From: Pseudomonadota bacterium
GTDB taxonomy: Bacteria > UBA10199 > 2-02-FULL-44-16 > JBDRGF01
Direction: 5' to 3'
Length of the DNA: 13,409 bases
Assembly: GCA_043818055.1 (NCBI GenBank)
Contig: JBDRGF010000011.1
Span: forward strand, 1-13,409
Part shown: positions 3 through 13,381 of the stretch, in pieces
Numbering within the stretch: the stretch's first letter is position 1
Layout: the number at the start of each line of letters is the position of its first letter
Notes under the pieces: model-generated
Told to the model about the DNA's origin: nothing
Database searches by the model: none
Seen by the model: the letters and a program-made list of their open reading frames with translations, nothing else
Position numbers and translations under genes: made by a program

Positions 3-1358
3 CTAACAGTGCGAATATGCAAACGATTTGACGGCGGCAGGGCGCATTGGGAGAGCGACACAGTATTCTGACTTTTTGTCCTTTCCAGAACCTCGCCATA
101 CCCTTCCTCCATGCATCTCCACTATCTTCTTCGACAAGGTAAAATCGAGGTCGGTATCTTCATTTAAAGCCATTTTATCTTTGTTGGCCACATAGGGAGT
201 GGTGTTTGGGTAGATGTCCTTGACAGATACCATCAACATATCACCCTTTTTAAAGGTGGTGAAGGATATTTTGTTCTTTCTTTTGCCACCCCCCATCGCA
301 TGAAGGATGGTGGTAAAGACCTGAGAGAGCCTGTCCTCATCGCCATATATGCCAGCTATTTTTGGATCGATCTCTATAGAAAACTCCATGTTGCGCTTGA
401 AGACCTCTCCCTGTGCTACAGCTCTGAGCAGCCTGTCTATATTAACCCGCCTCACATCCAAATGAAGCTGATTATTTTCAAGCTTTGAAATATCGAGCAT
501 GGTCTCGACCGTCTTCATGAGCCCGGTTCCTGATTGCCTTACCATCTTCAGATAGTTCACCTGTTCAGAATTCAGCTCGCCATACGTCCCATTGGCGATC
601 AGTTCAGTGAGGCCGATTATTCCATTGAGAGGCGTCCTCAATTCATGTGAGAGATTTCTCAAAAGCTGATCCCTGAAGCGCTTCGATTCCTGCAGCCTCT
701 TGTTCTGACTGAGGAGGAGGCTGTACATATTCGCATTGTGAATAACCATTGCGCTCTGAATGCTGAGGTAATTGAGCAGCTCAAGCGTCTCACAATCATA
801 GTTATCAACATTTCCAAGATTGATAAGGCCATGAAGTTTGCCGGCGATAAAAACAGGTACAACAGCAAAGGCATTAAAGTGAACCATGTAACGAAGGGCT
901 TCGTTTTTTATCCTGGACGGAGCAGAAGATTTGGAGATGACATCTCTAAGAACGATATTCTTATAATCTGTAATATAATCGAAAAAGATATCCCCCTCTT
1001 CTACGAGAAAGGATGTGAGTCTGCCCTTGAAAGTCGCCTTGACGCGAAATTTACAATCCGAACCCTTCACAAGAAAAGAACCCTCAGCGGCGCCAACTGT
1101 CGTAACAAAGAGCTCAACGATCGACTCATAGAGGCCAACCCCTCTCTTTCTGGCAGTCTTTTCGGTGAATGATTTTAGGATATCATGATAATCAAACCTG
1201 GGACGGCCGAGAAAACAATGAACAAACCACTCACGAAGATTTCTCCATTTGTAAATGCAGATCCCGCAAAGCAGAATGGATGACAAAATTAAAAAAAGAG
1301 ACAAGAGATACGGATATCCCTTTTCTAATATGGAAAATAGCCCGTCCAATTTTAACAC
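3..1358 (-). CDS. Membrane-anchored GAF-HisKA sensor histidine kinase-like protein with degenerate HATPase domain (probable pseudokinase/phosphatase)
   Basis: 451-aa ORF with GTG start, GGGGGAG Shine-Dalgarno upstream and TAG stop at 3-5. N-terminal hydrophobic helix, GAF-like segment (VVPVFIAGKLHGLINLG...ELLNYLSIQSAMVIHNA), H-box LSHELRTPLNGIIG, and HATPase remnants (GDEDRLSQVF, SKKIVEMHGGRVW). Confidence 0.88.
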   Translation of the reverse strand: MLKLDGLFSILEKGYPYLLSLFLILSSILLCGICIYKWRNLREWFVHCFLGRPRFDYHDILKSFTEKTARKRGVGLYESIVELFVTTVGAAEGSFLVKGSDCKFRVKATFKGRLTSFLVEEGDIFFDYITDYKNIVLRDVISKSSAPSRIKNEALRYMVHFNAFAVVPVFIAGKLHGLINLGNVDNYDCETLELLNYLSIQSAMVIHNANMYSLLLSQNKRLQESKRFRDQLLRNLSHELRTPLNGIIGLTELIANGTYGELNSEQVNYLKMVRQSGTGLMKTVETMLDISKLENNQLHLDVRRVNIDRLLRAVAQGEVFKRNMEFSIEIDPKIAGIYGDEDRLSQVFTTILHAMGGGKRKNKISFTTFKKGDMLMVSVKDIYPNTTPYVANKDKMALNEDTDLDFTLSKKIVEMHGGRVWRGSGKDKKSEYCVALPMRPAAVKSFAYSHC

Positions 1359-1480: not shown

Positions 1481-1508
1481 ATGAGTTGTGAGTCACTCAT
1501 CACTAGTT
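1481..1508. repeat. Short heptamer repeat with strand switch
   Basis: ATGAGTT GTGAGTC | ACTCATC ACTAGTT. ATGAGT/ACTCAT form an inverted repeat. Confidence 0.4.
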
Positions 1509-1510
1509 TG

Positions 1511-1537
1511 CATTTCTCACACCTCTTGTGAGAAATG
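1511..1537. promoter_or_regulatory. Perfect 11-bp inverted repeat (operator or hairpin candidate)
   Basis: CATTTCTCACA-CCTCT-TGTGAGAAATG in the divergent promoter region. Confidence 0.55.
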
Positions 1538-1539
1538 TT

Positions 1540-1599
1540 TCCAAATTTCAAATCTCAAACTCCAAATCTCAAATAAATCACAAATTTCAAATTCCAAAC
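1540..1599. repeat. Degenerate heptamer tandem array (NNCAAAY), 5 + 3 units
   Basis: TCCAAAT TTCAAAT CTCAAAC TCCAAAT CTCAAAT [AAAT] CACAAAT TTCAAAT TCCAAAC. Confidence 0.92.
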
Positions 1600-1626
1600 G
1601 AGAATCAAAATTAGCAAAGGAATTCC

Positions 1627-1654
1627 TTGATATTGTAAATTTTATCAATATTAT
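1627..1654 (+). promoter_or_regulatory. Candidate sigma70 promoter for the S41 protease operon (possibly leaderless)
   Basis: TTGATA-16 nt-TATTAT, ending 9 nt before ATG 1664. No SD precedes the ATG. Confidence 0.4.
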
Positions 1655-1663
1655 CTCCCCACT

Positions 1664-4333
1664 ATGAAAAAACATCTCATCACTACAATAATTCTTCTTC
1701 TCATCCCGTTCTCTTCATTCGCTGTTCCGCCGACCGGCATAATTACGGCAAAGAGTCTGGGGGCAGTGGAAAAGCACTACCTCGATCGCAAGGATATACG
1801 TCCCCGGGAACTTCTCGATGCTGCTTTGGAAAATCTTCAATACAACATTCCGGAATTTCAGATCATCAAGTCATCGTCCTCCAGCATCACTGTAAAAGTG
1901 GGGTTCGCGTCTAAGAATTTTAAAATTAGCCCGAACGTCACCCTCAAGGAGGTACCAACATTTTTATTCCACATCTATAAATTCCTGGAGGCAAATTACG
2001 ACGGGGATATCAAACAGGATCAGTTTGAACCTTTGGCAATCGACGGAATCCTTTCGAAGCTCGACGCCCATTCATCGCTCCTCATCCCCAAGATCTACAG
2101 CGAATTCAACATTGGAACGAAGGGGGAATTCGGCGGCCTTGGAATGGTAGTCGGTCTCAAAGATGGAAAAATAACTGTGATCTCACCCCTTGACGACACC
2201 CCTGCATCAAAAGTCGGAATGCGGGCAGGTGACAGGATCGTTCAAATTGAAAATGAATCGACTATTAACATGTCTCTCACAGAGGCCGTGAATATGCTAA
2301 GAGGGCCGGTCGGCACCAAAGTGACAATCGTCATTGAGAGAGGAGCTGGCGAGAAGATAAAACTTGAGATGAAAAGAGCCAAGATCCATATAGACAGCGT
2401 GAAGTCCAAGCTGATCAGCTCAAGACCCTCAAACAAGATAGGATATATAAAGATAAAAAACTTCCAGTCCAATACCGACGAGGATGTGGCAAAGGCCTTA
2501 AAAAAATTCGATACAGGTGGAAAGATGACAGGATTGATCATCGATCTGAGAAATAACCCCGGTGGTCTGCTCGACCAGGCAGCCAAAATATGCGATCACT
2601 TTCTTGAATCGGGCGTAATAGTCTCGACCGTCGCCGCCGGTAATAAGTTTATGGATAAGGAGAACGCCCATAAGACTGGCACCGAACCTACCTATCCCAT
2701 AGTCATTTTGATCAATCAGGGTTCTGCATCTGCATCCGAAATCGTTGCCAAAACCCTGCAGAACAACAGTCGTGCTATTGTGATGGGAGAGAATTCCTTT
2801 GGCAAAGGATCTGTTCAGACGATCTTCGATCTGGGTGATAATTACGCATTAAAACTTACAATTGCAAAATACCTCGCCAGCGGAACGACTGAGATCAAGA
2901 AGGAGGGCATCACACCAGATATCGAGCTCACTCCGCTATTCGCCGAAAAGGATACTATCAACATCATCCCCGATGAGAAAAAAGATTACGGAGAAGATTC
3001 TACAAAAAAGAAGGATGCTGTTAAAAAAGTCCCTACAGAAAAATCAAAATATAGCCTCTCTTTTTTAGATAAAAAGACTGAAAAGGATTGGGAAAAGATC
3101 AGCAAGGAAGAGCACGCAAAGGAGCCGAACATAGCAGATGATTTTGCGGTCAACCTGGCAATCAAACTGCTCACCAATGACAACATCAAAAAAGTTCCAA
3201 AAGTCATAGAGGAGCTCTCAAACGAGGAGCAACAGAAACTCACATCAGCCCTATCAAGTCTGAATATCGACTGGTCAGTTGGCAAAAAGCCTCTCAAAGC
3301 ACAGCCCAACCTGACTGACAGCTTAAATATTTTCAACAGCAATAAGAGCAAGAAATTGGAATCGATCCAGTCAGGGGATGCTGTCAATTTGGTTCTCACT
3401 CTCACAAACAATGGAAAAGAGACCTTGCACAGGGTGATCGCCAACACAACTTCTGAAAATCCATATTTTAACGAATTGGAATTTGTATTCGGTACACTTA
3501 AGCCTGGCGAAAGCAAGAGCTGGACCAGAGAGGTAAAAATTCCATTGGCCATGCCTCAACAGGAGGTCGAGATCAAATTTGAAAACAAATATGGTCGAAA
3601 TGCCAAATCTGCAGGGGAATTCAGCAAATCTATAACTCTGACTTCTGCCCCCTCCCCCCGATTCATGTTCAGCTATAAATTTTCAGGCGTTAAAACAAAT
3701 TCTCCAGTTCCTCAGAAAAAAAATCTGAATTTAAAACTGAAGGTCAGCAATCTTGGCCCGGGGGCAACAAGTGATGAATCCGTTGCAACGCTTTCGACCG
3801 AATCCCCAGAAACTGTATTCATTCAGAAAGGAAGGGTCGATATTCCCCAGTTGAAACCGGGTGAATCAAAATCCATAGACTTCAGCTTTTATATTCAGCC
3901 TGATACAAAAACTGAAGTGGCACAGCTCGAGTTGATTTTATTCGATTCCAAAAATTTGGTTTCTATCAGCAAAAAAATACAGCTCAACCTGACCAACGGA
4001 AAAATCACCCCTCCGGAATCGGTGCAGTATCAGGCGCCAAAAATCACTTTGAGCAACATACCCAAAACCTCAACCTCTGCCACATTGAACCTGAAGGGAA
4101 AGATAGAGGATGATGAAATTGTGAAGGATTATTATGTCTTCGTAGGAAGGGAAAAACTTGTCTACTCCCTCTTCCCCAGGGCAAAAAATGAAGCGGTCTT
4201 TACGACAACCCTTCCACTGGAAAAGGGAAATAATCTCATCACTGTAATAGCAAGGGATCAGCACCGCCTTTCATCATCCAAAAGTTTTATCGTCAGACTG
4301 GTCGAAAAAGATAGCAAAACAATTCAAAAATGA
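1664..4333 (+). CDS. Secreted carboxyl-terminal processing protease, S41A family (PDZ + peptidase) with C-terminal CARDB/Ig-like extension; MXAN_5808-like
   Basis: 889 aa. Signal peptide (MKKHLITTIILLLIPFSSFA), LDAHS, GEFGGLG PDZ entry, DLRNNPGGLL, INQGSASASE (catalytic Ser), GENSFGKGSVQ (catalytic Lys), GITPDI. Two C-terminal beta-rich repeats both contain LKPGESKS. Confidence 0.93.
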   Translation: MKKHLITTIILLLIPFSSFAVPPTGIITAKSLGAVEKHYLDRKDIRPRELLDAALENLQYNIPEFQIIKSSSSSITVKVGFASKNFKISPNVTLKEVPTFLFHIYKFLEANYDGDIKQDQFEPLAIDGILSKLDAHSSLLIPKIYSEFNIGTKGEFGGLGMVVGLKDGKITVISPLDDTPASKVGMRAGDRIVQIENESTINMSLTEAVNMLRGPVGTKVTIVIERGAGEKIKLEMKRAKIHIDSVKSKLISSRPSNKIGYIKIKNFQSNTDEDVAKALKKFDTGGKMTGLIIDLRNNPGGLLDQAAKICDHFLESGVIVSTVAAGNKFMDKENAHKTGTEPTYPIVILINQGSASASEIVAKTLQNNSRAIVMGENSFGKGSVQTIFDLGDNYALKLTIAKYLASGTTEIKKEGITPDIELTPLFAEKDTINIIPDEKKDYGEDSTKKKDAVKKVPTEKSKYSLSFLDKKTEKDWEKISKEEHAKEPNIADDFAVNLAIKLLTNDNIKKVPKVIEELSNEEQQKLTSALSSLNIDWSVGKKPLKAQPNLTDSLNIFNSNKSKKLESIQSGDAVNLVLTLTNNGKETLHRVIANTTSENPYFNELEFVFGTLKPGESKSWTREVKIPLAMPQQEVEIKFENKYGRNAKSAGEFSKSITLTSAPSPRFMFSYKFSGVKTNSPVPQKKNLNLKLKVSNLGPGATSDESVATLSTESPETVFIQKGRVDIPQLKPGESKSIDFSFYIQPDTKTEVAQLELILFDSKNLVSISKKIQLNLTNGKITPPESVQYQAPKITLSNIPKTSTSATLNLKGKIEDDEIVKDYYVFVGREKLVYSLFPRAKNEAVFTTTLPLEKGNNLITVIARDQHRLSSSKSFIVRLVEKDSKTIQK

Positions 4334-5268
4334 TGAAGATATTTGAGGGGTCGACAAACTATAACGAGTCAAGCCGGCATAAAACGATAGTTGCCATCGG
4401 CAACTTTGACGGTGTTCATCTTGGACATTTGAAACTTTTGCAGCTTGCAAAGGAGATGGCTAAGAGAAAAAACAGCAGGCTGCTGGCTTACACATTTTTT
4501 CCTCATCCCGCCGCCTTGCTTGCACCACAACTAGCACCTTTACTGCTGCAAACAATTGAACAGAGAAAGAGATCGCTTGAAGAGGCCGGAGTTGACATCT
4601 GTATAATTGAGCCCTTCGATCATGCCCTTTCCGGTGTAAGCCCTGATTACTTTTTTCATGAAACACTTCTAAACAGACTTCATGCCTCAGGAATCGTAAT
4701 AGGATACGATTTTACTTTCGGCAAAAACAGGTCAGGAAATACTGCAATGTTGCAATCGCTCGCACAAAAAGAGAAAATAGAGCTCATCGTAACACCACCC
4801 CAGTTAATCGATGAAATTCTCATCAGTTCAACCAACATAAGACAGGCCCTGCGGGGTGGACAGATCGATTTGGCAAACAAACTCTTGGGCAGAGCTTATG
4901 AAATCACAGGATTGATAATACCGGGTCGCGGTTTTGGCAAAGAGATTGGCGCACGAACTGCAAACCTTAAACCGTACAGCCAGATCATCCCATCTGATGG
5001 CGTATATCTTACTGAAACAACAATTGATAAAACTTACCCTTCGATAACCAGCATAGGCAATAACCCTACATTCTCTTTTAAACAACATAGCATTGAGACA
5101 CATCTTTTGGATACAGAGAGAGATCTGCAAGGAGTACAAGTTTCCATCAACTTTTTACACAGAATGAGAGATCAGAAAGCATTCAATTCGGTCGAAGAAC
5201 TGACGCATCAGATCTCTGATGATTTAAAAGAAGCGAGAAAAATGCATGAGAAAAGAAAAGGGATTTGA
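4330..5268 (+). CDS. ribF: Bifunctional riboflavin kinase / FAD synthetase
   Basis: GNFDGVHLGH, FFPHP, GYDFTFG, ISSTNIR, LLGR, TANL, SIGNNPTF, IETHLLD, R-D-Q-K-A-F. Start overlaps the protease stop (ATGA). Confidence 0.96.
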   Translation: MMKIFEGSTNYNESSRHKTIVAIGNFDGVHLGHLKLLQLAKEMAKRKNSRLLAYTFFPHPAALLAPQLAPLLLQTIEQRKRSLEEAGVDICIIEPFDHALSGVSPDYFFHETLLNRLHASGIVIGYDFTFGKNRSGNTAMLQSLAQKEKIELIVTPPQLIDEILISSTNIRQALRGGQIDLANKLLGRAYEITGLIIPGRGFGKEIGARTANLKPYSQIIPSDGVYLTETTIDKTYPSITSIGNNPTFSFKQHSIETHLLDTERDLQGVQVSINFLHRMRDQKAFNSVEELTHQISDDLKEARKMHEKRKGI

Positions 5269-5494
5269 TCATCCAAGGTTGTTCGGCTTTCTCTATATAG
5301 ATGATAGAGAACTCACGATCGCCCACAGAGTCGATCGACATCTGAGATCCATCGATCCAAAAATCAGATGCCTGCCTCTAAAAATCAACAAAAGGAAAAT
5401 TAAGAATGTATATAAAGCTATGCGCCTTCTGGATATTGAGGGAGGAATTATAGCCGGTGGGTGTCAAAGATTAGGCACTTTCCGTATATATTAA
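5246..5494 (+). CDS. Small protein resembling a degenerate shikimate dehydrogenase N-terminal (substrate-binding) domain; possibly a gene remnant
   Basis: 82 aa, overlapping the ribF end by 23 nt. RLFGFL...LPLKI...KAMRLLDIEG follows the spacing I recall for the AroE N-terminus (LYGVIG...FKV...KGIRALGxxG) but lacks the SxSP and TxPxK motifs. Confidence 0.5.
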   Translation: MRKEKGFDHPRLFGFLYIDDRELTIAHRVDRHLRSIDPKIRCLPLKINKRKIKNVYKAMRLLDIEGGIIAGGCQRLGTFRIY

Positions 5495-5576
5495 CCCGCT
5501 TTAATTTTACCTTCATTTTTATCAGTCTTTTGCTCTTATTTATTATCTAGTTACAAATTCTTGACAATGGGTATAT

Positions 5577-5593
5577 TTGGCATGATTCTTGAA
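5577..5593 (+). promoter_or_regulatory. Candidate sigma54 (-24/-12) promoter
   Basis: TTGGCATGATTCTTGAA versus consensus YTGGCACGRNNNTTGCW (GG-N10-GA). It lies 24 nt before the ATG, and a GAGG SD is at 5608-5611. Confidence 0.6.
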
Positions 5594-5617
5594 GTGAATA
5601 TGTCATAGAGGTATTAT

Positions 5618-6076
5618 ATGAAACAAATAAAATTATCAGTATTGGTTATTGAGGATAACCCAGTCCTACTCTCCTTTTGGGAAAGGATCTTAAGCGACAT
5701 GGGCATACCGAAGAAATCTCTTCACTTCACTTCAGATGTTTTGGAAGCAAAGGCGCTTCTCAGTAAGTATGCATTCGATCTGTTGATATCAGATGTTGTG
5801 TTGCCGGATCTCAATGGATACCAACTTGCACGATTCGCGATAGAAAAAAATCCTGGAATCAGAATATTGCTCACCACCGGATATAGCGCAAATTTGAGCA
5901 GATTTGATCTTAAAGGTTTAAAAGCCCATCTAATCCATAAACCGTATCAGGACCTCAACCGCCTGACTGCGATGATCTCACATGTAATAAATGATGAGGA
6001 CCCATTCGAGGATGCCACCGAAGACAGTCATTCGGAAAATGACTTCTATCCCGATATCACGGAGTGGTCATTGTAA
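5618..6076 (+). CDS. Single-domain CheY-like response regulator with acidic C-terminal tail
   Basis: VLVIEDN, DLLISDVVLPDLNGYQL (phospho-Asp), LLTTGY and HKPY. SD GAGG. Confidence 0.92.
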   Translation: MKQIKLSVLVIEDNPVLLSFWERILSDMGIPKKSLHFTSDVLEAKALLSKYAFDLLISDVVLPDLNGYQLARFAIEKNPGIRILLTTGYSANLSRFDLKGLKAHLIHKPYQDLNRLTAMISHVINDEDPFEDATEDSHSENDFYPDITEWSL

Positions 6077-6105
6077 TGCGACATGATTCGAGTATGCAAA
6101 TTCCC

Positions 6106-6133
6106 GTAGGGGCGGTTCGCGAACCGCCCCTAC
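6106..6133. repeat. GTAG-type REP palindrome (may also act as a terminator hairpin)
   Basis: Perfect 28-bp palindrome GTAGGGGCGGTTCG|CGAACCGCCCCTAC between convergent genes. Confidence 0.85.
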
Positions 6134-6209
6134 AAATTAAAATCGGTTAGGATAACAAAAAAGTATTTACAATGAAACAAGGCGAACAATATCTTCAACT
6201 CCTTAAATC

Positions 6210-8414
6210 TTAAAACGCTCTACTCCCCAAAGGCACCAACCCTGCAAATTCGGCAATCAATCTTTGAACATGTCCATTCTTAAATGAAACAGTGACCTTT
6301 CTTCCCACGCTGGTTTTTTCACTGCTTTTGATTATGCCTATCCCTAACGTCGGATGCTGCACATGACAGCCGACCGGAAAATCCATAATTCGTTCATCAA
6401 CAGGTCGTTGGTCAAAATCATCTTCAATTCTATTATTATTCGCGACCACACTACCCTGAGAATATTTATTAAAAGAGGCCTTCATCTGAAATTCATTTTT
6501 TACAAGCAAATTATTCCTGTGAACGATTTGATCCGGCAGCTCGTTGATAAATCTTGAAATCGCGCCATAACGAGTAACTCCAAATCGCTGCCTTCGACAC
6601 GCTGAAAGAAGCGTCACTTTCTCCTTCGCTCGCGTCAAGCCCACATAGCAAAGTCGTCTCTCCTCTTCGAGTTCCTCTATATCTTCAATCGAGGATGCGT
6701 GTGGGAGAGTTCCCTCATCAAGCCCGATCACATAGACTATGGGAAATTCCAACCCCTTAGCCAGATGCAACGTCATGAGACTCACAACTCCAGCCGTCTC
6801 ATCGAACCTGTCGATATCGCTCACCAAAGCGACCTGATCCATAAATTCGCAAAGAAGACCCGTACCCTCTTTCCCGGATTTGAATTCGCTTATTGCGCTC
6901 ACCAGCTGGTTCACGTTTTCAAGCCTCACCTCGGATTCGAGCGACGAACTACTGACCAAATTGTCAAGATAGCCGCTCCTGTCGAGTATCTCATGCAGAA
7001 TATTTGAAAGCTCCATCTCGAAATGACGAGCATGTAGCTCTTCAAAAAGTGTCCTTATCGAAATAAGGCTCTCCCGCGTCTTTCCTTTGATGCCTATTTC
7101 ATCGAGTTTATACAGGGATGAGAAGAGAGAACCTCCGAAATCCTTTATCGTCAGATCAAGCCTCTCCAGACTTCGCTTTCCGATGCCGCGTGGAGGAACG
7201 TTGATGATTCTCGATAGCGAGACATCGTCATGAGGATCGAGAACAAGTCGCAAGTAGGCGAGCAGGTCCTTGATCTCCTTTCTCTGATAAAATTTCACTC
7301 CACCGAAAATCCGGTACGGTATCTGAAATCTCCTGAATGCATCTTCTATCGGCCTCGACTGCGCATTCATCCTGTAGAAGACAACCATGTCGCTGTAAAG
7401 TTTCCCCTTAGTCCTCTCTTCTGAGATCTTCTTTGCAACCTCATCTGCCTCTTCCTTTTCGGTCGGCGCCAGAATGAAGCTGATCCTCTCCCCTACCTCT
7501 TTTTCAGTCCAAAGAACTTTAGCTTTGCGGCCGGTGTTATTCGAAATCAGGGCATTTGCGGCATTGAGAATATTGCCAGTCGAACGATAATTCTGTTCGA
7601 GCTTGATCACGAGCGAACCCGGATAATCCTTTTCAAAATCGAGTATGTTTGAAATATCGGCGCCCCTCCAGCGATAGATCGACTGATCGTCATCTCCCAC
7701 GACACATAAATTTTTCCTTGAGCCGGAGAGCAATTTCAAAAGGGTATACTGGGCATGGTTCGTGTCCTGGTACTCATCCACGAGGAGATATTTCCATCTA
7801 TTGTAATGCGCATTCAGCACATCCTCATTTTCAGAAAAAAGCTTCACGACTAAACGAATCAGATCTCCAAAATCGACTGCAAAGGATGTCTGGAGGATCT
7901 CCTGATATCTATTATATATCCTCGAAATCTGTTTCAGATAGAAGTTGTCGGCAAGCTGTTCGAATTTTTTCGGGTCATGACACTCATCCTTCGCACGCGA
8001 TATCTTTTCTACAACGGATCTTGGTGGAAATTTCTTAATATCGAGATTAAGCTCAGCAAGCACGCGTTTCACAAGGGCCAACTGATCATTATCATCATAG
8101 ATGATAAAATTAGGAGCGAGTCCCGCTGCCTCGGAGCATCTTCTAAGGATATTGAGACATATCGAGTGAAAGGTTCCGACTGTGAGATCGCGATAACGAT
8201 TACCGACTATTCTCTCCAGACGAGAACGCATCTCGCCGGCTGCTTTATTTGTAAATGTCACAGCCAGAATATTGGAGGCCTGTACCCCGTTCGCCATGAG
8301 GTGCGCGATGCGGGAAATCAAAACCCTTGTCTTCCCGCTTCCCGCCCCTGCAAGAATCAAAAGAGGCCCATCCAGATGCTCAACTGCTATTTTTTGTTGT
8401 GGATTTAATTCCAT
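6210..8414 (-). CDS. pcrA: ATP-dependent DNA helicase PcrA/UvrD (SF1)
   Basis: 734 aa. AGAGSGKT, TFTNKAA, VDEYQDTN, VGDDDQSIY, LEQNYRST, MTLHLAKGLEF, EEERRLCYVGLTRA, and a C-terminal Tudor-like tail (VQHPTLGIG). Confidence 0.96.
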   Translation of the reverse strand: MELNPQQKIAVEHLDGPLLILAGAGSGKTRVLISRIAHLMANGVQASNILAVTFTNKAAGEMRSRLERIVGNRYRDLTVGTFHSICLNILRRCSEAAGLAPNFIIYDDNDQLALVKRVLAELNLDIKKFPPRSVVEKISRAKDECHDPKKFEQLADNFYLKQISRIYNRYQEILQTSFAVDFGDLIRLVVKLFSENEDVLNAHYNRWKYLLVDEYQDTNHAQYTLLKLLSGSRKNLCVVGDDDQSIYRWRGADISNILDFEKDYPGSLVIKLEQNYRSTGNILNAANALISNNTGRKAKVLWTEKEVGERISFILAPTEKEEADEVAKKISEERTKGKLYSDMVVFYRMNAQSRPIEDAFRRFQIPYRIFGGVKFYQRKEIKDLLAYLRLVLDPHDDVSLSRIINVPPRGIGKRSLERLDLTIKDFGGSLFSSLYKLDEIGIKGKTRESLISIRTLFEELHARHFEMELSNILHEILDRSGYLDNLVSSSSLESEVRLENVNQLVSAISEFKSGKEGTGLLCEFMDQVALVSDIDRFDETAGVVSLMTLHLAKGLEFPIVYVIGLDEGTLPHASSIEDIEELEEERRLCYVGLTRAKEKVTLLSACRRQRFGVTRYGAISRFINELPDQIVHRNNLLVKNEFQMKASFNKYSQGSVVANNNRIEDDFDQRPVDERIMDFPVGCHVQHPTLGIGIIKSSEKTSVGRKVTVSFKNGHVQRLIAEFAGLVPLGSRAF

Positions 8415-8422
8415 AAATTTTG

Positions 8423-8457
8423 ACTGATTACTGACAACTGAAAACTGACAACTGTTT
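8423..8457. repeat. Heptamer tandem array (ACTGNNN) x5
   Basis: ACTGATT ACTGACA ACTGAAA ACTGACA ACTGTTT, filling most of the 45-bp glmS-pcrA spacer. Confidence 0.9.
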
Positions 8458-8459
8458 TT

Positions 8460-10280
8460 TCACTCCACCGTCACGCTCTTCGCTAAATTGCGGGGTTGAT
8501 CGACATCCGTCCCCTTATAATCAGCAATGTAATATGCTATCAACTGCATAGGTATTGCAGCAAGTATCGGCGTAAGATGCGGATGAATGTTTGGAAGCGC
8601 TATAGTCTCATCGACGAGATCATCCAACCTGGCATCACCCTGCGAAACCAGCGCGACCACAGAGCCGCTCCTCGCTTTAACTTCCTCAATGTTACCAAAT
8701 ATTTTTTCGCTGTAGGAATCCTTCGGCGCTATTGCGATTATGCATACATCCTCGTCAACTAGTGCGATGGGACCATGCTTCAATTCTCCCGCAGGAAATC
8801 CTTCAGCATGCAGATAAGAAATTTCTTTTAGCTTCAACGCCCCTTCCAACGCCACAGGATAATTCATTCCACGTCCTATGAACAAAACCTGCGCTGAATG
8901 AGAATAAGCGACAGAGACTTGGTTGATAAAATCCGCGACATCCAAAACCAGATTCAGATAGCGGGGAATCATTTGTAAATCTTTAAAAATAATTTCTCTG
9001 TCATCGATCTTCCGACCCTTTTTCTCACCTAGATAGAGAGCCATCATATAAAGAAGAAGGAGCTGCGCAGTAAAGGCCTTGGTGGAAGCGACCCCTATCT
9101 CCGGCCCGGCTTCTATATTCACCGTCGCATCGCTTAACCTTGCAATCGAAGATCCCATGACGTTGCAAAGGCTCAATATAGAACAGCCGGCATCTTTGGC
9201 CAGTTTCAAAGCCGCAAGAGTATCGGCAGTTTCACCAGACTGCGAAATCGGAATCACCAGAGTCTTTTTGTCGATCAAAGGACCACGATATCTGAATTCA
9301 GAGGAGTAATCTACGATCACCGGAATTTTTGCCAGATTTTCTATCCAATATTTTCCGACCAGCGCTGCATGATAGGATGTTCCGCAAGCTACGATCGCAA
9401 TTTCATCTATATCATTCTTTTCAAAAACGGCATCAATCTCAGGAAATTTTAATTTTGATCTCTCCTCAATTCTGTCTTTAATAATCCTTTCCAAAACGGA
9501 GGGCTGTTCAAAGATCTCCTTGAGCATGTAATGTTTGAAGCCACCCTTTTCAGCCATAGATGAATTCCATGTGACAAAATATGGATGTCTCTTAACTTTG
9601 ACACCGCTATTATCAAAGAGCTGTATCTCTTTCATGCTGACAATAGCCAGCTCTCCATCCTCCATTGAAAGAACTTTTCTGGTGTAGGGAAGAAGTGCCG
9701 GGATATCCGATGCGATAAAATTTTCACCATTTCCTAGTCCAAGAATGATGGGTGAACCGGATTTCGCTACATAGATATTTTCCGCATCAGATTTGTGAAT
9801 CACCGCCAACGCGTATGAGCCGCGAAGCTCGAGGATTGCCTTTCGAATAGCAGCTACAGTATCCTTCTCCTTTTTCGAGTGATACCAGATCAGATGACAG
9901 ATCACCTCAGTATCGGTTTCAGATACAAATTCATGTCCATCATCTGCTAACATTTTTTTTAATTCATTATAGTTCTCAATGATTCCGTTGTGGACGACAG
10001 CGTAGCCGCCGGCTGCGTGAGGGTGGGCATTTCTTTCGGAGGGTTTTCCATGTGTAGCCCATCTCGTATGACCGATTCCAAGAGTGCCGGAGAGTGGGGA
10101 TTCTTTCAAGACCTTTTCAAGGTTAACCAACTTTCCAAAGGCCCTGGTAATCGAAATCTTCCCGTTATTCATTATCGCAACACCGGCCGAATCATAGCCG
10201 CGATATTCCAACCTCTTCAGTCCATCGAGAAGAATATCTTGAGCATTTTTCTTCCCGATATATCCGACGATTCCACACAT
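8460..10280 (-). CDS. glmS: Glutamine--fructose-6-phosphate aminotransferase (isomerizing)
   Basis: True start is MCGIVGY at 10280, not the ORF-track start at 10364. LEYRGYDSAG, GHTRWATHG, HNGIIEN, SQSGET, ASTKAF, EGALKLKE, C-terminal PRNLAKSVTVE. Confidence 0.98.
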   Translation of the reverse strand: MCGIVGYIGKKNAQDILLDGLKRLEYRGYDSAGVAIMNNGKISITRAFGKLVNLEKVLKESPLSGTLGIGHTRWATHGKPSERNAHPHAAGGYAVVHNGIIENYNELKKMLADDGHEFVSETDTEVICHLIWYHSKKEKDTVAAIRKAILELRGSYALAVIHKSDAENIYVAKSGSPIILGLGNGENFIASDIPALLPYTRKVLSMEDGELAIVSMKEIQLFDNSGVKVKRHPYFVTWNSSMAEKGGFKHYMLKEIFEQPSVLERIIKDRIEERSKLKFPEIDAVFEKNDIDEIAIVACGTSYHAALVGKYWIENLAKIPVIVDYSSEFRYRGPLIDKKTLVIPISQSGETADTLAALKLAKDAGCSILSLCNVMGSSIARLSDATVNIEAGPEIGVASTKAFTAQLLLLYMMALYLGEKKGRKIDDREIIFKDLQMIPRYLNLVLDVADFINQVSVAYSHSAQVLFIGRGMNYPVALEGALKLKEISYLHAEGFPAGELKHGPIALVDEDVCIIAIAPKDSYSEKIFGNIEEVKARSGSVVALVSQGDARLDDLVDETIALPNIHPHLTPILAAIPMQLIAYYIADYKGTDVDQPRNLAKSVTVE

Positions 10281-10281
10281 A

Positions 10282-10938
10282 TTATGTTCCCTTTTTCTTT
10301 CGTTTATAGTTTTCGATATTCTTCTGCTCCACACGTGAAAGCGCAAGCGATTGTGCAGGCACATCTTTTGTTATCGTTGACCCGGCGCCTATCGTAGCAC
10401 CCTTTCCTATCCTGACAGGGGCGACAAATTGCGAATCGCTACCCACGAAGACATCCTCTTCGAATATCGTTTGAAATTTCTGAAAGCCGTCGTAATTGCA
10501 TGTGATAGTACCACAGCCGATATTCGTCCTTGCTCCGACAACAGCATCGCCAAGATACGTGAGATGATTCGCCTTAGCACCCTTTTCAACCTTCGTCTTT
10601 TTCACCTCTACAAAATTCCCGATCCTCGCATCTTCACCGATCTCACTCTCCGGCCTAATTCTGGCGAATGGACCGATCTTCGCATTTTTCTTTATGATAC
10701 TACTCTCAAGAACTGAGTAAGGTTTGATCTCGACACCATCTTCGACTGTCATATCAGTAAGCACAGCCCCCACACTTAAGAGACAGTTTTCCCCGATCTT
10801 AGTATTTCCAAAGAGACACACCCCCGGAAATACTTTTGTGCCAGATCCAATTTCGACGCATTCATCTATATAAGCATTATCGACGTCGATAAATTCCACA
10901 CCATTTTTCAAATGTTTTTCGTTTATTTTATTCTTCAT
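10282..10938 (-). CDS. glmU: GlmU C-terminal half only: glucosamine-1-phosphate N-acetyltransferase (left-handed beta-helix)
   Basis: 218 aa. [63 protein letters not shown]. Begins at the GlmU linker helix, with an in-frame TGA a few codons upstream. Stop is 1 nt from the glmS start. Confidence 0.9.
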
Positions 10939-10950
10939 AATAAATAAGAA

Positions 10951-10999
10951 GCCTGAGGCCTGATGTCAGAAGTCAGAAGTCAGAGGCCTGAGGCCAGTT
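10951..10999. repeat. Heptamer tandem array (GYCWGWN) x7
   Basis: GCCTGAG GCCTGAT GTCAGAA GTCAGAA GTCAGAG GCCTGAG GCCAGTT. Two more related units, ACCAGGG ACCAGCA, lie at 11018-11031. Confidence 0.9.
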
Positions 11000-11135
11000 A
11001 CCGCTAGCAACCTTTCAACCAGGGACCAGCAACATTGCCTTATAATATCAATTAGTTACCAAATGTTTTAGGACTCCCCTATCCACAAAGAAGGGCAGAA
11101 TATAGCCGATACCGGCTCAATAAGACAAGCTAATT

Positions 11136-11164
11136 TTGACATTCGCTCAGAATCGTACTATACA
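11136..11164 (+). promoter_or_regulatory. Candidate sigma70 promoter
   Basis: TTGACA-17 nt-TATACA. The ORF-track TTG start lies inside this -35 box. Confidence 0.45.
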
Positions 11165-11174
11165 TATGTTTGCT

Positions 11175-11789
11175 ATGAATCTTTCCAACGCAAGACATAT
11201 TTCAAAAAGCCTCAAACTAGAGGTGATCACTATCACATCAAAATTCAAAAAACATCTCTCATCTGCTATCATCTTAAACTCGATCGTATTGATCATCCTC
11301 TTTGGCACTATCGGATATGTCACTACCATGCCGACGACGAAGCCATCCAAAAATGAAACAACTTCCGATCTAAATCTCGCGCTCGATCTCATCAATGCAC
11401 AGAAGAGAGTTCCAAATAAAACTGAAGTTGCAATTTCAACTGTCACAATTCCTGAAATAAAGGCTGAAGAGTCTACACCGATCGCGGTTGTAGAAGTTAA
11501 AGAAGAAAAGGAACCGGTAAAGCAAAACGATGTAAATCTGGAAATTGAAAAGATTGTGAAAAAAATTGGTGACGATTCTGATCAGAGCAAAAGAAAGCGG
11601 GCATTAGTTGCCAGACGAAATAAAACAAGCGCCGTCGACACACTCGACAACGAAACCGCCAGACTCCACTATCTAAAAACCAACAATATCAAGAAAGGGA
11701 GCGTAACAACTCCCACACCTGAACCTGAGATGAAATACTACGGCATTGACAGTTCTGTATTCATTCCATTTGAGAACGATCCACGGTAG
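11175..11789 (+). CDS. Hypothetical single-pass membrane protein (start uncertain: 11166, 11175, 11223 or 11232)
   Basis: Long ORF with a basic patch then a hydrophobic helix (AIILNSIVLIILFGTIGYV), a low-complexity E/K/T/P linker, and a C-terminal YYGIDSSVFIPFENDPR. No family recognised. Confidence 0.7.
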   Translation: MNLSNARHISKSLKLEVITITSKFKKHLSSAIILNSIVLIILFGTIGYVTTMPTTKPSKNETTSDLNLALDLINAQKRVPNKTEVAISTVTIPEIKAEESTPIAVVEVKEEKEPVKQNDVNLEIEKIVKKIGDDSDQSKRKRALVARRNKTSAVDTLDNETARLHYLKTNNIKKGSVTTPTPEPEMKYYGIDSSVFIPFENDPR

Positions 11790-11842
11790 ATGAGGGGTCG
11801 GGAAATTTTTCTGGCAAATGCTTCATTTACCGACCCCTCATC
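11789..11842. repeat. 13-bp inverted repeat hairpin directly after the stop codon (terminator-like or REP-like)
   Basis: GATGAGGGGTCGG (11789-11801) pairs with CCGACCCCTCATC (11830-11842). No U-tract follows. Confidence 0.65.
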
Positions 11843-11872
11843 CTGAGCGAGTGCTTTGATCGAAGGATCCAG
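11838..11872. repeat. Degenerate GTC-type REP-like unit (TCATCCTGAGCG...CGAAGGATC)
   Basis: TCATCCTGAGCGAGTGCTTTGATCGAAGGATCCAG with an ATCCT/AGGAT stem. Resembles the widespread GTCATCCTGAGCG-AAG-CGAAGGATC repeats. Confidence 0.6.
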
Positions 11873-11949
11873 AACCGGTTATAATGTTTCACTTTTTTGA
11901 GAAAGACCCCACCGCCCCCCTCAGGTCGATCAATAACTCCAAACATATT

Positions 11950-12034
11950 CAAGTGACAAGTTGCAAGGATCAAGACTTGAGGCTTTTCCCCTCTGCCCTT
12001 CCCCCAATGACATTTTCCTCTGTGCCCTTCCCCC
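11950..12034. repeat. Two adjacent heptamer arrays: (CAAGNNN) x4 and a duplicated C-rich triplet of units
   Basis: CAAGTGA CAAGTTG CAAGGAT CAAGACT (11950-11977). TTTCCCC TCTGCCC TTCCCCC (11985-12005) recurs as TTTCCTC TGTGCCC TTCCCCC (12014-12034). Confidence 0.7.
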
Positions 12035-12078
12035 TTTTTGACGGGGGAAGGTGGCTGAAAGCCGGATGGGGGTGAGGG
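12026..12078. repeat. REP/MITE-like double-hairpin element (CCCTCACCC...CCTTCCCCC-loop-GGGGGAAGG type)
   Basis: CCTTCCCCC-TTTTTGAC-GGGGGAAGG, then a GGCT-GAA-AGCC mini-hairpin, then GGATGGGGGTGAGGG. Confidence 0.7.
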
Positions 12079-12152
12079 TTTTTGGACCAAATTGTGACAT
12101 TCTATCCACGCATCTGTTTCTTTCCAGTACTATCCCAATCCCAGAACAGCCT

Positions 12153-13210
12153 TCACATACACGCAGTAGTCGCAGTTCGTAGGCTCGTAAATATTTCTTG
12201 TATGGGTCCAAAGCATTTTGTTCGCTTTATAATATTGGAACATAATAAACCTGCCAAGAGAAATCGAATTTCACCACCACAGTTTTTATAAATTTCACGT
12301 ATCACTAAATCACTAATCGGCAATTTACAAGGATTGTCAGTATCCTGTGAAAGTTTTTTTGCTCTAATTTTTAGAATATCTACTGCCTCATTTTCATTCA
12401 ATGATTCAAGATATGTTTCAGTCCCTCGAAAATTATCAACCAACCTTGCGCCATTTGGATGTTGCCTTATTGCGCCATACGCCCCCCTTAGCCCTAATAA
12501 AATAACCCAGAGCTTTTTTATTGAGAACAATTCGTCTCGCAGCTCATTTAATATTTGCACCAGAATATTTATATCTACGATATCAAGGTTATTGATGATC
12601 ACATATATTCCATTCTTTTCGAGATCCGGAAGAGCATTTTCTAAGAGTTGACGGTTGATTTGAGCCAACTGGCTTATGGATGCCATTGACGGATGAGCCT
12701 GGCCCTGGGAAGCGCCACCATATGAAGCACCAACCCCTACACCTGAGCACCACCTGTCGGTCTGCTTGCAGAAACAATCAGTTCGTTAATCCATTTGTGA
12801 CGTTGATTAATCTCTTTTGGAACAGAGCGCTTCAACTCATCGTATATGTGCATTAAAGAAAATATGATACTTGAAGTTATCTTCAACATAAGGCTTTGCG
12901 CAGTTTCATCGGAATTGATTTGAAGTTTATTCATATTTGGAATCAGACGCGAGGGTGAATGGGCAATGTCCTCGAATTGTGTTTTTGGCTTATCAAAAGA
13001 GGTAACATACTGCATAACATTCACAAAAGTGGTTTTCCCCACACCTGGATTGCCTGTAACCAAGTGAATACAGCCTTCTAAACCGGCCATTTGTGCAAGA
13101 TAACTGTGAACATCGCCCCGCCGCCCAACAAACTTTTCAAATCCTTCTTTTGATGGTTCCAAAGGGTCAGTAAAAAAGGGGTTTTTGATAAATCCAATAG
13201 CTTCATACAT
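12153..13210 (-). pseudogene. Frameshifted P-loop/AAA-like ATPase (about 352 aa if repaired)
   Basis: ATG at 13210 with AAGGAG SD. GFIKNPFFTDPL...FVGR, Walker A GNPGVGKTT, then TAG at 12737-12739. The downstream frame continues GVGASYGG..., with Walker B-like VIINNLD and lid motif GGEIRF. One added T gives GGAQVLGVGASYGG. Confidence 0.8.
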
Positions 13211-13235
13211 ACAAATCTCCTTTATTATCAATGAT

Positions 13236-13273
13236 ATAACTCAATTTGCAGAAATTTCTGCTAATTGAGTTAT
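13236..13273. promoter_or_regulatory. 38-bp near-perfect palindrome upstream of the ATPase (operator or recombination-site candidate)
   Basis: ATAACTCAATT-T-GCAGAAA|TTTCTGC-T-AATTGAGTTAT, with a single mismatched pair. Confidence 0.6.
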
Positions 13274-13303: not shown

Positions 13304-13381
13304 TGTCATCCCCGCGAAGGCGGGGATCCAGATTTGGCTAATACCTATCAATACTGGATCCCCGCCTTCGCGGGGATGACA
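13304..13381. repeat. GTC-type REP doublet (REPIN/MITE-like; dRS3/RPE-like architecture)
   Basis: TGTCATCCCCGCGAAGGCGGGGATCCAG (13304-13331) and its exact reverse complement (13354-13381) with a 22-bp spacer. Each arm is itself a hairpin. Confidence 0.9.

Follow-up and report, generated by a model that had tools for sequence, protein, structure and literature searches.

The 7-nt arrays between the genes of the window, by which we mean the whole 13,409-nt stretch of DNA that was analyzed, are best read as solo arms from a family of fold-back cassettes whose full form is a four-helix-bundle protein gene (PF05635/TIGR02436) between inverted 7- or 8-nt arrays, and we give this reading a probability of about 0.62. 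A gene-less form of the cassette would consist of the same arms around a short loop. The arms pair, they keep a polarity and a position, the gene-bearing and gene-less forms have a common anatomy, and the cassette is exchanged as one piece. Among the options that a preliminary description of this DNA had named for the arrays, mobile-element ends or scars is the one supported by gene-arm pairs and allele states. This reading joins two old puzzles, the excess of 7-nt repeats between bacterial genes and the role of the S23p/four-helix-bundle protein, and would give a testable origin to the unexplained 7-base repeats of many bacteria.

The window is one contig (C11) of a 2.93 Mb genome in 166 contigs that is 93.6% complete. 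GTDB holds no relative of this genome closer than the order, and a metagenome scan for close relatives yielded none, with a best identity of 52%. The window encodes a histidine kinase (3-1358, minus strand), an S41 peptidase (1664-4333, plus strand), FAD synthetase, a response regulator, UvrD, GlmS, the C-terminal half of GlmU (10282-10938, minus strand) and three proteins without a Pfam match. Two minus-strand open reading frames at 12153-13231 have no Pfam match; the upstream one has a P-loop motif, and the pair is possibly one broken ATPase gene. Genes across the genome (2525) were called with a purpose-written hexamer-model script, which makes distances to stops more reliable than those to starts.

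Intergenic DNA of the genome has a strong period of seven. The 4-mer match rate reached 0.0159 at lag 7 and rose again at the harmonics 14 and 21; other lags gave 0.005-0.008, and coding DNA showed no lag-7 enrichment. Array detection yielded 302 arms in 1704 intergenic segments, as opposed to 7-14 in five dinucleotide shuffles. The period can be 7 or 8, as lag-8 intergenic arrays numbered 80 against 11-22 at lags 5, 6, 9, 10, 11 and 13. At least nine unit families coexist, which makes this genome a useful case; left arms are 21% G and 35% A and thus not built from a G-rich, quadruplex-capable unit. Although a median of 4.6 units per arm would fit a pentamer, the detection threshold biases this figure, and it is not counted as evidence. 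The C-A-purine motif noted earlier in many units is real insofar as YAR fits 71% of 334 arms, but a universal YAR core was rejected, as several degenerate triplets fit equally well or better in this genome. AG in phase ranks top across phyla (82% vs 22% for CT), though not in the class or in this genome. The absence of arrays inside genes is borne out for the window, and genome-wide the family patterns occur 11 times inside called genes vs 316 times outside. That arrays occupy most intergenic gaps was overstated: they are present in four of the eight non-trivial gaps of the window and in 299 of 1465 gaps of at least 40 nt in the genome (about 20%). Nor are the arrays independent with arbitrary units, as had been proposed, since each is a member of a dispersed family that recurs at other places in the genome.

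Four arrays of the window stand up to scrutiny, those at 1540-1599, 8423-8457, 10951-10999 and 11950-11977, with lag-7 identities of 0.66, 0.75, 0.76 and 0.67. Lag 7 is the highest among lags 4-11 in each, a strict array detector returned exactly these four in the window, and TRF detected the first three. Two further stretches from the preliminary description did not hold. At 11985-12034, lag-7 identity is 0.47 with no clear peak (0.43 at lag 8 and 0.41 at lag 6), and the stretch is instead a 22-nt direct repeat at 29-nt spacing within a CCCTTCCCC...GGGGAAGG hairpin. The weak array at 1481-1508, a possible degenerate mini-hairpin of no assigned strand, is indistinguishable from chance (lag-7 identity 0.52, polarity score 0.9, fold z -0.28). 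Folding of five window stretches gave none better than shuffles and no folding pair in the window, no four-helix-bundle gene was found within it, and an Rfam scan of eight sources yielded three tRNAs only, with no family on the arrays.

The array at 1540-1599 is a solo left arm of the CAAA family on the plus strand (polarity score +50.7, fold z -0.01) between the divergent histidine kinase and S41 peptidase genes. Its inner motif is that of full CAAA foldbacks on contigs C12, C32, C33, C75, C90 and C153, and its right arm is absent. The array at 8423-8457, a solo left arm of the CAGT family on the minus strand (polarity score -23.4), has its first CAG unit 5 nt behind the TGA stop of glmS and extends almost to the ATG of uvrD (8414). 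It matches arms of four-helix-bundle genes from other phyla at 19 of 21 positions, which equals the top of the permuted control (16-19). A solo left arm of the AGAAG family spans 10946-10997 on the plus strand (10951-10999 in the preliminary description), with 15 family matches in the genome; it agrees at 20 of 21 positions with an arm at L003, a four-helix-bundle locus of this genome on contig C159 (control 16-19). The fourth array, at 11950-11977 on the plus strand, is a short solo left arm of CAAG type (polarity score +22.9), the only four-unit CAAG array of the genome, with a REP-like element on its inner side. For the arrays at 1540-1599 and 11950-11977, matches to known cassette arms did not exceed those of controls. 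The array at 8423-8457 is unchanged in spanning contigs of public runs X2 and X3 and the AGAAG array in an X3 contig (10912-11426), so that no change in unit number was seen in the public-run contigs spanning these two arrays, contigs being a form of data that drops rare variants. One of the public runs that span window arrays may be the source of the genome, and runs in which it had a small share gave no usable spans.

The outer end of the AGAAG array lies about 8 nt from the ATG (10938, minus strand) of glmU (10282-10938), in which the N-terminal uridyltransferase half is missing. Upstream stretches of 153-270 open codons are seen in 25 of the 26 glmS loci that gave a match, and in the last one the locus end is reached. 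The best match to the uridyltransferase half in the genome is at 27%, on contig C159. Because the array sits at the glmU breakpoint, the AGAAG element may mark a deletion or rearrangement there. Degenerate CCAGC-type units follow the AGAAG arm at 10998-11035, and the recurrence of this two-family junction on contig C70 near position 7308 suggests stacked or nested elements.

Other repeats lie beside the arrays. The REP-like element CCCTTCCCC...GGGGAAGG at 11984-12090 (no strand assigned) is a hairpin with a 29-nt internal duplication and no heptamer array. It has 43 matches in the genome and lies on the inner side of heptamer arms in 23 cases vs 3 on the outer side. At L068:1285-2150 (G000 C73), a DUF559 gene is flanked by inverted copies of this repeat, orphan copies of which nest inside heptamer arms; this is a second type of gene-plus-repeat cassette. 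A perfect 14-bp GTAG-tagged palindrome of REP type at 6106-6133 (10 genome matches to a strict pattern) is a feature separate from the heptamer arms. The window further holds a 33-bp inverted repeat of the GTCATCCCCGCG family at 13304-13381, with 33 half-matches in the genome; its depth in public runs is very high, which makes it a common repeat in the community. An 18-bp hairpin at 11789-11870 overlaps a TCATCCTGAGC repeat with 16 genome matches, and a 19-bp palindrome hairpin occupies 13236-13273.

Across the genome the arms follow a consistent grammar. Of 109 neighboring arm pairs less than 100 nt apart, 63 are inverted and 5 direct, with 4.7% expected at random. Leave-one-out prediction of polarity, meaning which strand faces inward, was right for 126 of 130 hairpins (45-76 in the control); applied to foreign cassettes, the model from this genome fits only 33 of 47 and 16 of 23. 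Most arms stand alone (249 of 435 have no partner). Genes enclosed by inward-facing arms also include those for signal peptidase, a permease, an epimerase and ATP synthase D, which probably lie between separate elements.

In 138 of 168 cases a left arm begins no more than 20 nt behind a stop codon, against 52 of 148 behind a start. The same proximity to a stop was seen in 8 of 56 cases in four other repeat families and in 64 of 162 with a loose GTAG pattern, and uniform placing would give 33%. In the GCATGT family the distance to the stop peaks at 9-11 nt, or the arm itself provides the stop. Where it does, the stop is in phase with the array in 27 of 65 cases, as expected from stop triplets in the units. 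The idea that an outside stop codon sets the phase of the array was discarded, with only 15 of 114 in phase. The TAGT family is an exception to the stop rule (1 of 7), and 12 of its 23 arms lie within 150 nt of a tRNA. As five arms also start 4-10 nt behind the 3' end of a tRNA, the position rule applies to gene ends as such and not just to ribosomes. An arm is close to 17 of the 46 tRNA/tmRNA genes, and at G000 C126:28903-28964 a hairpin of the TAGT family separates tRNA-Ile from tRNA-Ala, a tRNA pair typical of the 16S-23S spacer.

A defined gene-less element is seen in the GCATGT family, with at least 139 arms in the genome. Its 19 complete elements share a conserved loop and constant outer ends; nine measure exactly 87 nt, and several length variants are 87 nt minus 7 or 14 nt. 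The family thus has the terminal inverted repeats and the defined length of a MITE. In the 18 non-seed copies, core columns near the center are 92-97% fixed and alternate columns flip between two letters, with adenine columns 86-97% fixed. The copies are old, nearest neighbors among them being 62-91% alike. Partner arms are of a common subtype (rho 0.84), and mirror-copying of one arm from the other was rejected, as complementarity between partners does not exceed that between arms taken from different copies of one subtype. No clear target duplication was found at the 19 elements, whose longest flanking direct repeat was 4.7 nt vs 4.2 nt in the control (n=19, with A/T-rich fuzzy ends), and none was seen between the orthologous loci L298 and L299 described below. 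At L088 (G000 C73:5585-5700), three GCATGT left arms stand in direct tandem at 45-nt spacing.

The arms go together with genes of the four-helix-bundle family. The link to TIGR02436 named in the preliminary description is supported, as all five PF05635/TIGR02436 matches in the genome have arms. Each of the three full-length PF05635 genes, all outside the window, lies between inverted arms, so that the reading frame stands between complementary ends as in S23p-type elements, and the three use different arm families; the two partial matches are also armed. On contig C10, the gene replaces the center of a GCATGT loop, with the inner AAAAGC/GGTTTTGCC segments kept. These cassettes (L001, L003 and L082) and the window arrays lie between protein genes and not inside an rRNA gene. 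No cognate gene for the CAAT, CAAA, CAGT, TAGT and TAAG families is present in the 93.6% complete assembly.

The association extends beyond this genome. Of 80 four-helix-bundle loci from across phyla, 4 were dropped for short flanks, and among the other 76 an arm was present in 72, both arms in 54 and an inverted pair in 45. Within the class, the counts were 26, 24 and 23 of 28 loci (one dropped), and among 27 glmS control loci (two truncated loci left out), 5 had an arm and none an inverted pair. The four-helix-bundle loci are the best-scoring matches, a choice that may favor one subfamily. In 87 genomes of the class, gene count and array-pattern count correlated at rho 0.63 (0.83 for family means) and, within families, at r 0.41 (p 0.003). 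The pattern count includes the reversed control pattern, itself of period 7; the forward pattern alone gives rho 0.50. A strong gene match came with fewer than five pattern matches in 16 of 50 genomes, and at least five pattern matches came without a strong gene match in 6 of 37; the test pattern had zero matches in 43 of the 87.

The four-helix-bundle protein is closest to solved structures 2GSC and 2RLD, of five chains each. The next fold neighbor is DGR Avd (8UB7 and 4DWL, Z 14.8 and 13.8; best match rmsd 2.5 over 110 aligned residues at 13% identity), with unrelated bundles reaching 13.8, and Avd was not among the sequence matches to solved structures. Other gene families that had been proposed as neighbors of arrays were searched for as well. 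GxxExxY gave one partial match, at a contig end. Two reverse transcriptase matches, which we take to be of group II intron type and Abi-like, lie on contigs C30 and C109, and the cassettes lie on C10, C33, C76 and C159. Two Y1 transposase (HUH/RAYT) matches were found in the genome, with no GTAG repeats at either locus by pattern search; GTCAT repeats were likewise lacking by pattern at three GIY-YIG loci, save one match. At L038:186-2571, a gene for a 288-aa nucleotidyltransferase-like protein overlaps a 511-aa reverse transcriptase gene in what looks like a defense pair.

In order to compare empty and filled sites, orthologous spacers were examined in two other genera, in the best 30 of 59 matching genomes for the sdhA-sdhB junction and the best 30 of 40 for a Flavobacterium spacer. 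Empty, gene-less and gene-bearing alleles were all found; this evidence comes from those genera and not from the organism of the window. One sdhA-sdhB locus lacked the upstream gene and was dropped; among the other 29 alleles, 17 were empty, 8 gene-bearing, 3 arms-only and 1 other. The empty alleles measure 5-20 nt, the gene-bearing ones have arms of several unit families, so that unrelated families occupy one site, and several filled alleles have an arm whose first unit is the host stop codon. The gene-bearing L298 is sister to the empty L299 (99/97) within a clade of empty alleles, and L295 and L300, with an 84-nt gene-less hairpin, are likewise nested among empty ones. The Flavobacterium spacer was gene-bearing in 16 of 30 genomes, arms-only in 11 (two weak), other in 3 and empty in none. 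Eight of its gene-less alleles are one CAAG hairpin, yet they are scattered over the host tree. With the host accounted for, arm similarity followed the protein (r 0.66, 0 of 2000 permutations); with the protein accounted for, it did not follow the host (-0.13). This test was made on 13 of the 16 gene-bearing rows after one long branch and two short matches were dropped. L298 and L299 differ at 4 of 15 letters before the stop and at 3 of the first 21 of sdhB, above background (p 0.009 and 0.002, in windows picked post hoc), which hints that short flanks are co-transferred with the cassette; in Flavobacterium only one of six flank windows agrees with this (p 0.027). A largely similar allele pattern would result from passive homologous exchange of entire spacers between species, which would not alone explain the colonizing of new sites.

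From these observations we propose, tentatively and at somewhat less than even odds, that the cassette moves by homology-assisted replacement of the short spacer from a stop codon to the next start. Such movement would not involve cut-and-paste with target duplication, and no mobilizing enzyme was found in a check of the Y1 transposase matches and of 10 genes between or beside arms. By analogy with 23S intervening sequences, the transcribed stem would likely be cut by RNase III, making insertion into operons tolerable. An RNA-stem role would not be the whole story, because the wobble bias is weak and most arms are solo: a strong bias was rejected at a sense-strand G:U excess of 165 vs 128 (per locus p 0.06). 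The pentameric protein may bind about five units of an arm, a step that we hold to be less probable than the replacement route. Loss of the gene, and then of one arm, would leave the solo arms seen in the window. A broader and rather doubtful extension is that the pentamer is the mobility factor of widespread transposase-free selfish elements, binding about five units of its own arm family, targeting junctions at stop codons and tRNA ends, and spreading cassettes and gene-less hairpins in a homing-like manner, with the heptamers of cyanobacteria, Xanthomonas, Beggiatoaceae and the present genome as its footprints.

Other origins for the arrays are each improbable in our view. One is that a transposase or HUH nuclease moves the gene-less hairpins in trans, as MITE- or REPIN-like elements, with the four-helix-bundle gene as just one passenger of the loop. 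The fixed length, inverted ends and dispersed family agree with this, as do the two Y1 matches and a loop that also accepts the REP-like element (23 vs 3). We nevertheless consider it unlikely, given that target duplication is not clear, the arm family tracks the four-helix-bundle protein, pattern search found no GTAG repeats at the two Y1 loci, and none of the 10 scanned genes between or beside arms matched a transposase family. Quite unlikely, in turn, is de novo writing of arms by an enzyme such as a reverse transcriptase with an Avd-like pentamer that copies a short template repeatedly and with errors at RNA 3' ends. Variable positions with two states next to others 92-97% fixed, arms that abut stop codons and tRNA ends with the stop codon as first unit in several alleles, and Avd as the nearest functionally known fold (Z 14.8) would all suit it. 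However, unrelated helical bundles reach Z 13.8, neither reverse transcriptase match is beside any cassette, invariant adenines speak against DGR-type mutagenesis, and whole elements including the loop are inherited, with subfamilies. The error-prone reiterative synthesis proposed earlier fares no better, as partner arms are not copies of one another and the two arrays spanned by public-run contigs are without variation.

Ordinary polymerase slippage that favors 7-nt units, with selection retaining harmless intergenic ones, is very unlikely as the origin of the arrays, in line with the earlier judgment against simple slippage. A polymerase-footprint origin has been proposed (cited in the available text of PMC4692102), element lengths differ by whole units, and unit number varies among Coxiella strains (available text of PMC4990558), so slippage probably accounts for changes in unit number. 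It predicts no inverted pairs, fixed polarity, shared loops or gene link, and it does not predict close relatives without arrays (43 of 87 genomes had no match to the test pattern); inverted pairs, polarity, the cross-phyla gene link and the sdhA-sdhB alleles largely refute it. The least probable account is that the arrays are host regulatory sites (terminators, RNA stability or translation control) kept by selection and of no mobile origin. The tight position behind stops and before starts, the persistence of solo arms with conserved cores and the translational control proposed for TAACTGA repeats (available text of PMC4679880) speak for it. Against it, 17 of 29 genomes make do with an empty allele of 5-20 nt at the sdhA-sdhB junction, and one site is occupied by unrelated unit families. 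Later co-option of arms by the host is possible.

The fold-back cassettes can finally be set beside systems already described. Cyanobacterial STRR are 7-nt intergenic arrays oriented to neighboring genes. Polar heptamer repeats (Xanthomonas, Nostoc) and the heptamers of one 23S intervening sequence are each in print separately, and a literature search that covered few subscription papers found none that joins the gene family to intergenic heptamers genome-wide. In the Coxiella 23S intervening sequence, according to the available text of PMC4990558, GACAGAT heptamers precede the S23p reading frame, an RNase III site lies at the first repeat, and a homopentamer structure of S23p is cited. As there, we find a four-helix-bundle reading frame between complementary ends, heptamers directly before it and a patchy distribution; unlike there, the cassettes lie between protein or tRNA genes, number hundreds per genome and are mostly gene-less or single-armed. 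The GGGAATC and GGGGA(C/T)T repeats of Xanthomonas and Nostoc are intergenic heptamers in convergent pairs, with strands placed behind stops and before starts, and the available text of PMC4692102 reports the same stop-codon polarity for GGGAATC and leaves the function open. The 7-nt intergenic excess, convergent pairs and strand-specific proximity to stops all occur here as well. Those genomes have one G-rich, quadruplex-prone unit each and no gene link in the part of PMC4692102 available, whereas here at least nine unit families, mostly not G-rich, share one polarity. The TAACTGA arrays of Beggiatoaceae, 7-nt intergenic arrays oriented to neighboring genes, stand before start codons and are read as regulator binding sites in the available text of PMC4679880, which has no match for "four helix", "23S" or "intervening"; their unit resembles the right-arm reading of the array at 8423-8457. 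REP/REPIN with RAYT (PMC3733652, available text) also presents a small repeat-bracketed gene whose gene-less copies fill the genome. Unlike REP, REPIN and MITE systems, the cassettes have a partner protein without known catalytic activity, tandem 7-mers in place of GTAG palindromes and no clear target duplication. DGR Avd (8UB7, 4DWL) has a similar four-helix bundle, but at 13% identity and a score near those of unrelated bundles, and the linked reverse transcriptase, template repeat and adenine-specific variation of a DGR are lacking. The cassette family works like an intervening sequence or a REP system and belongs to neither.
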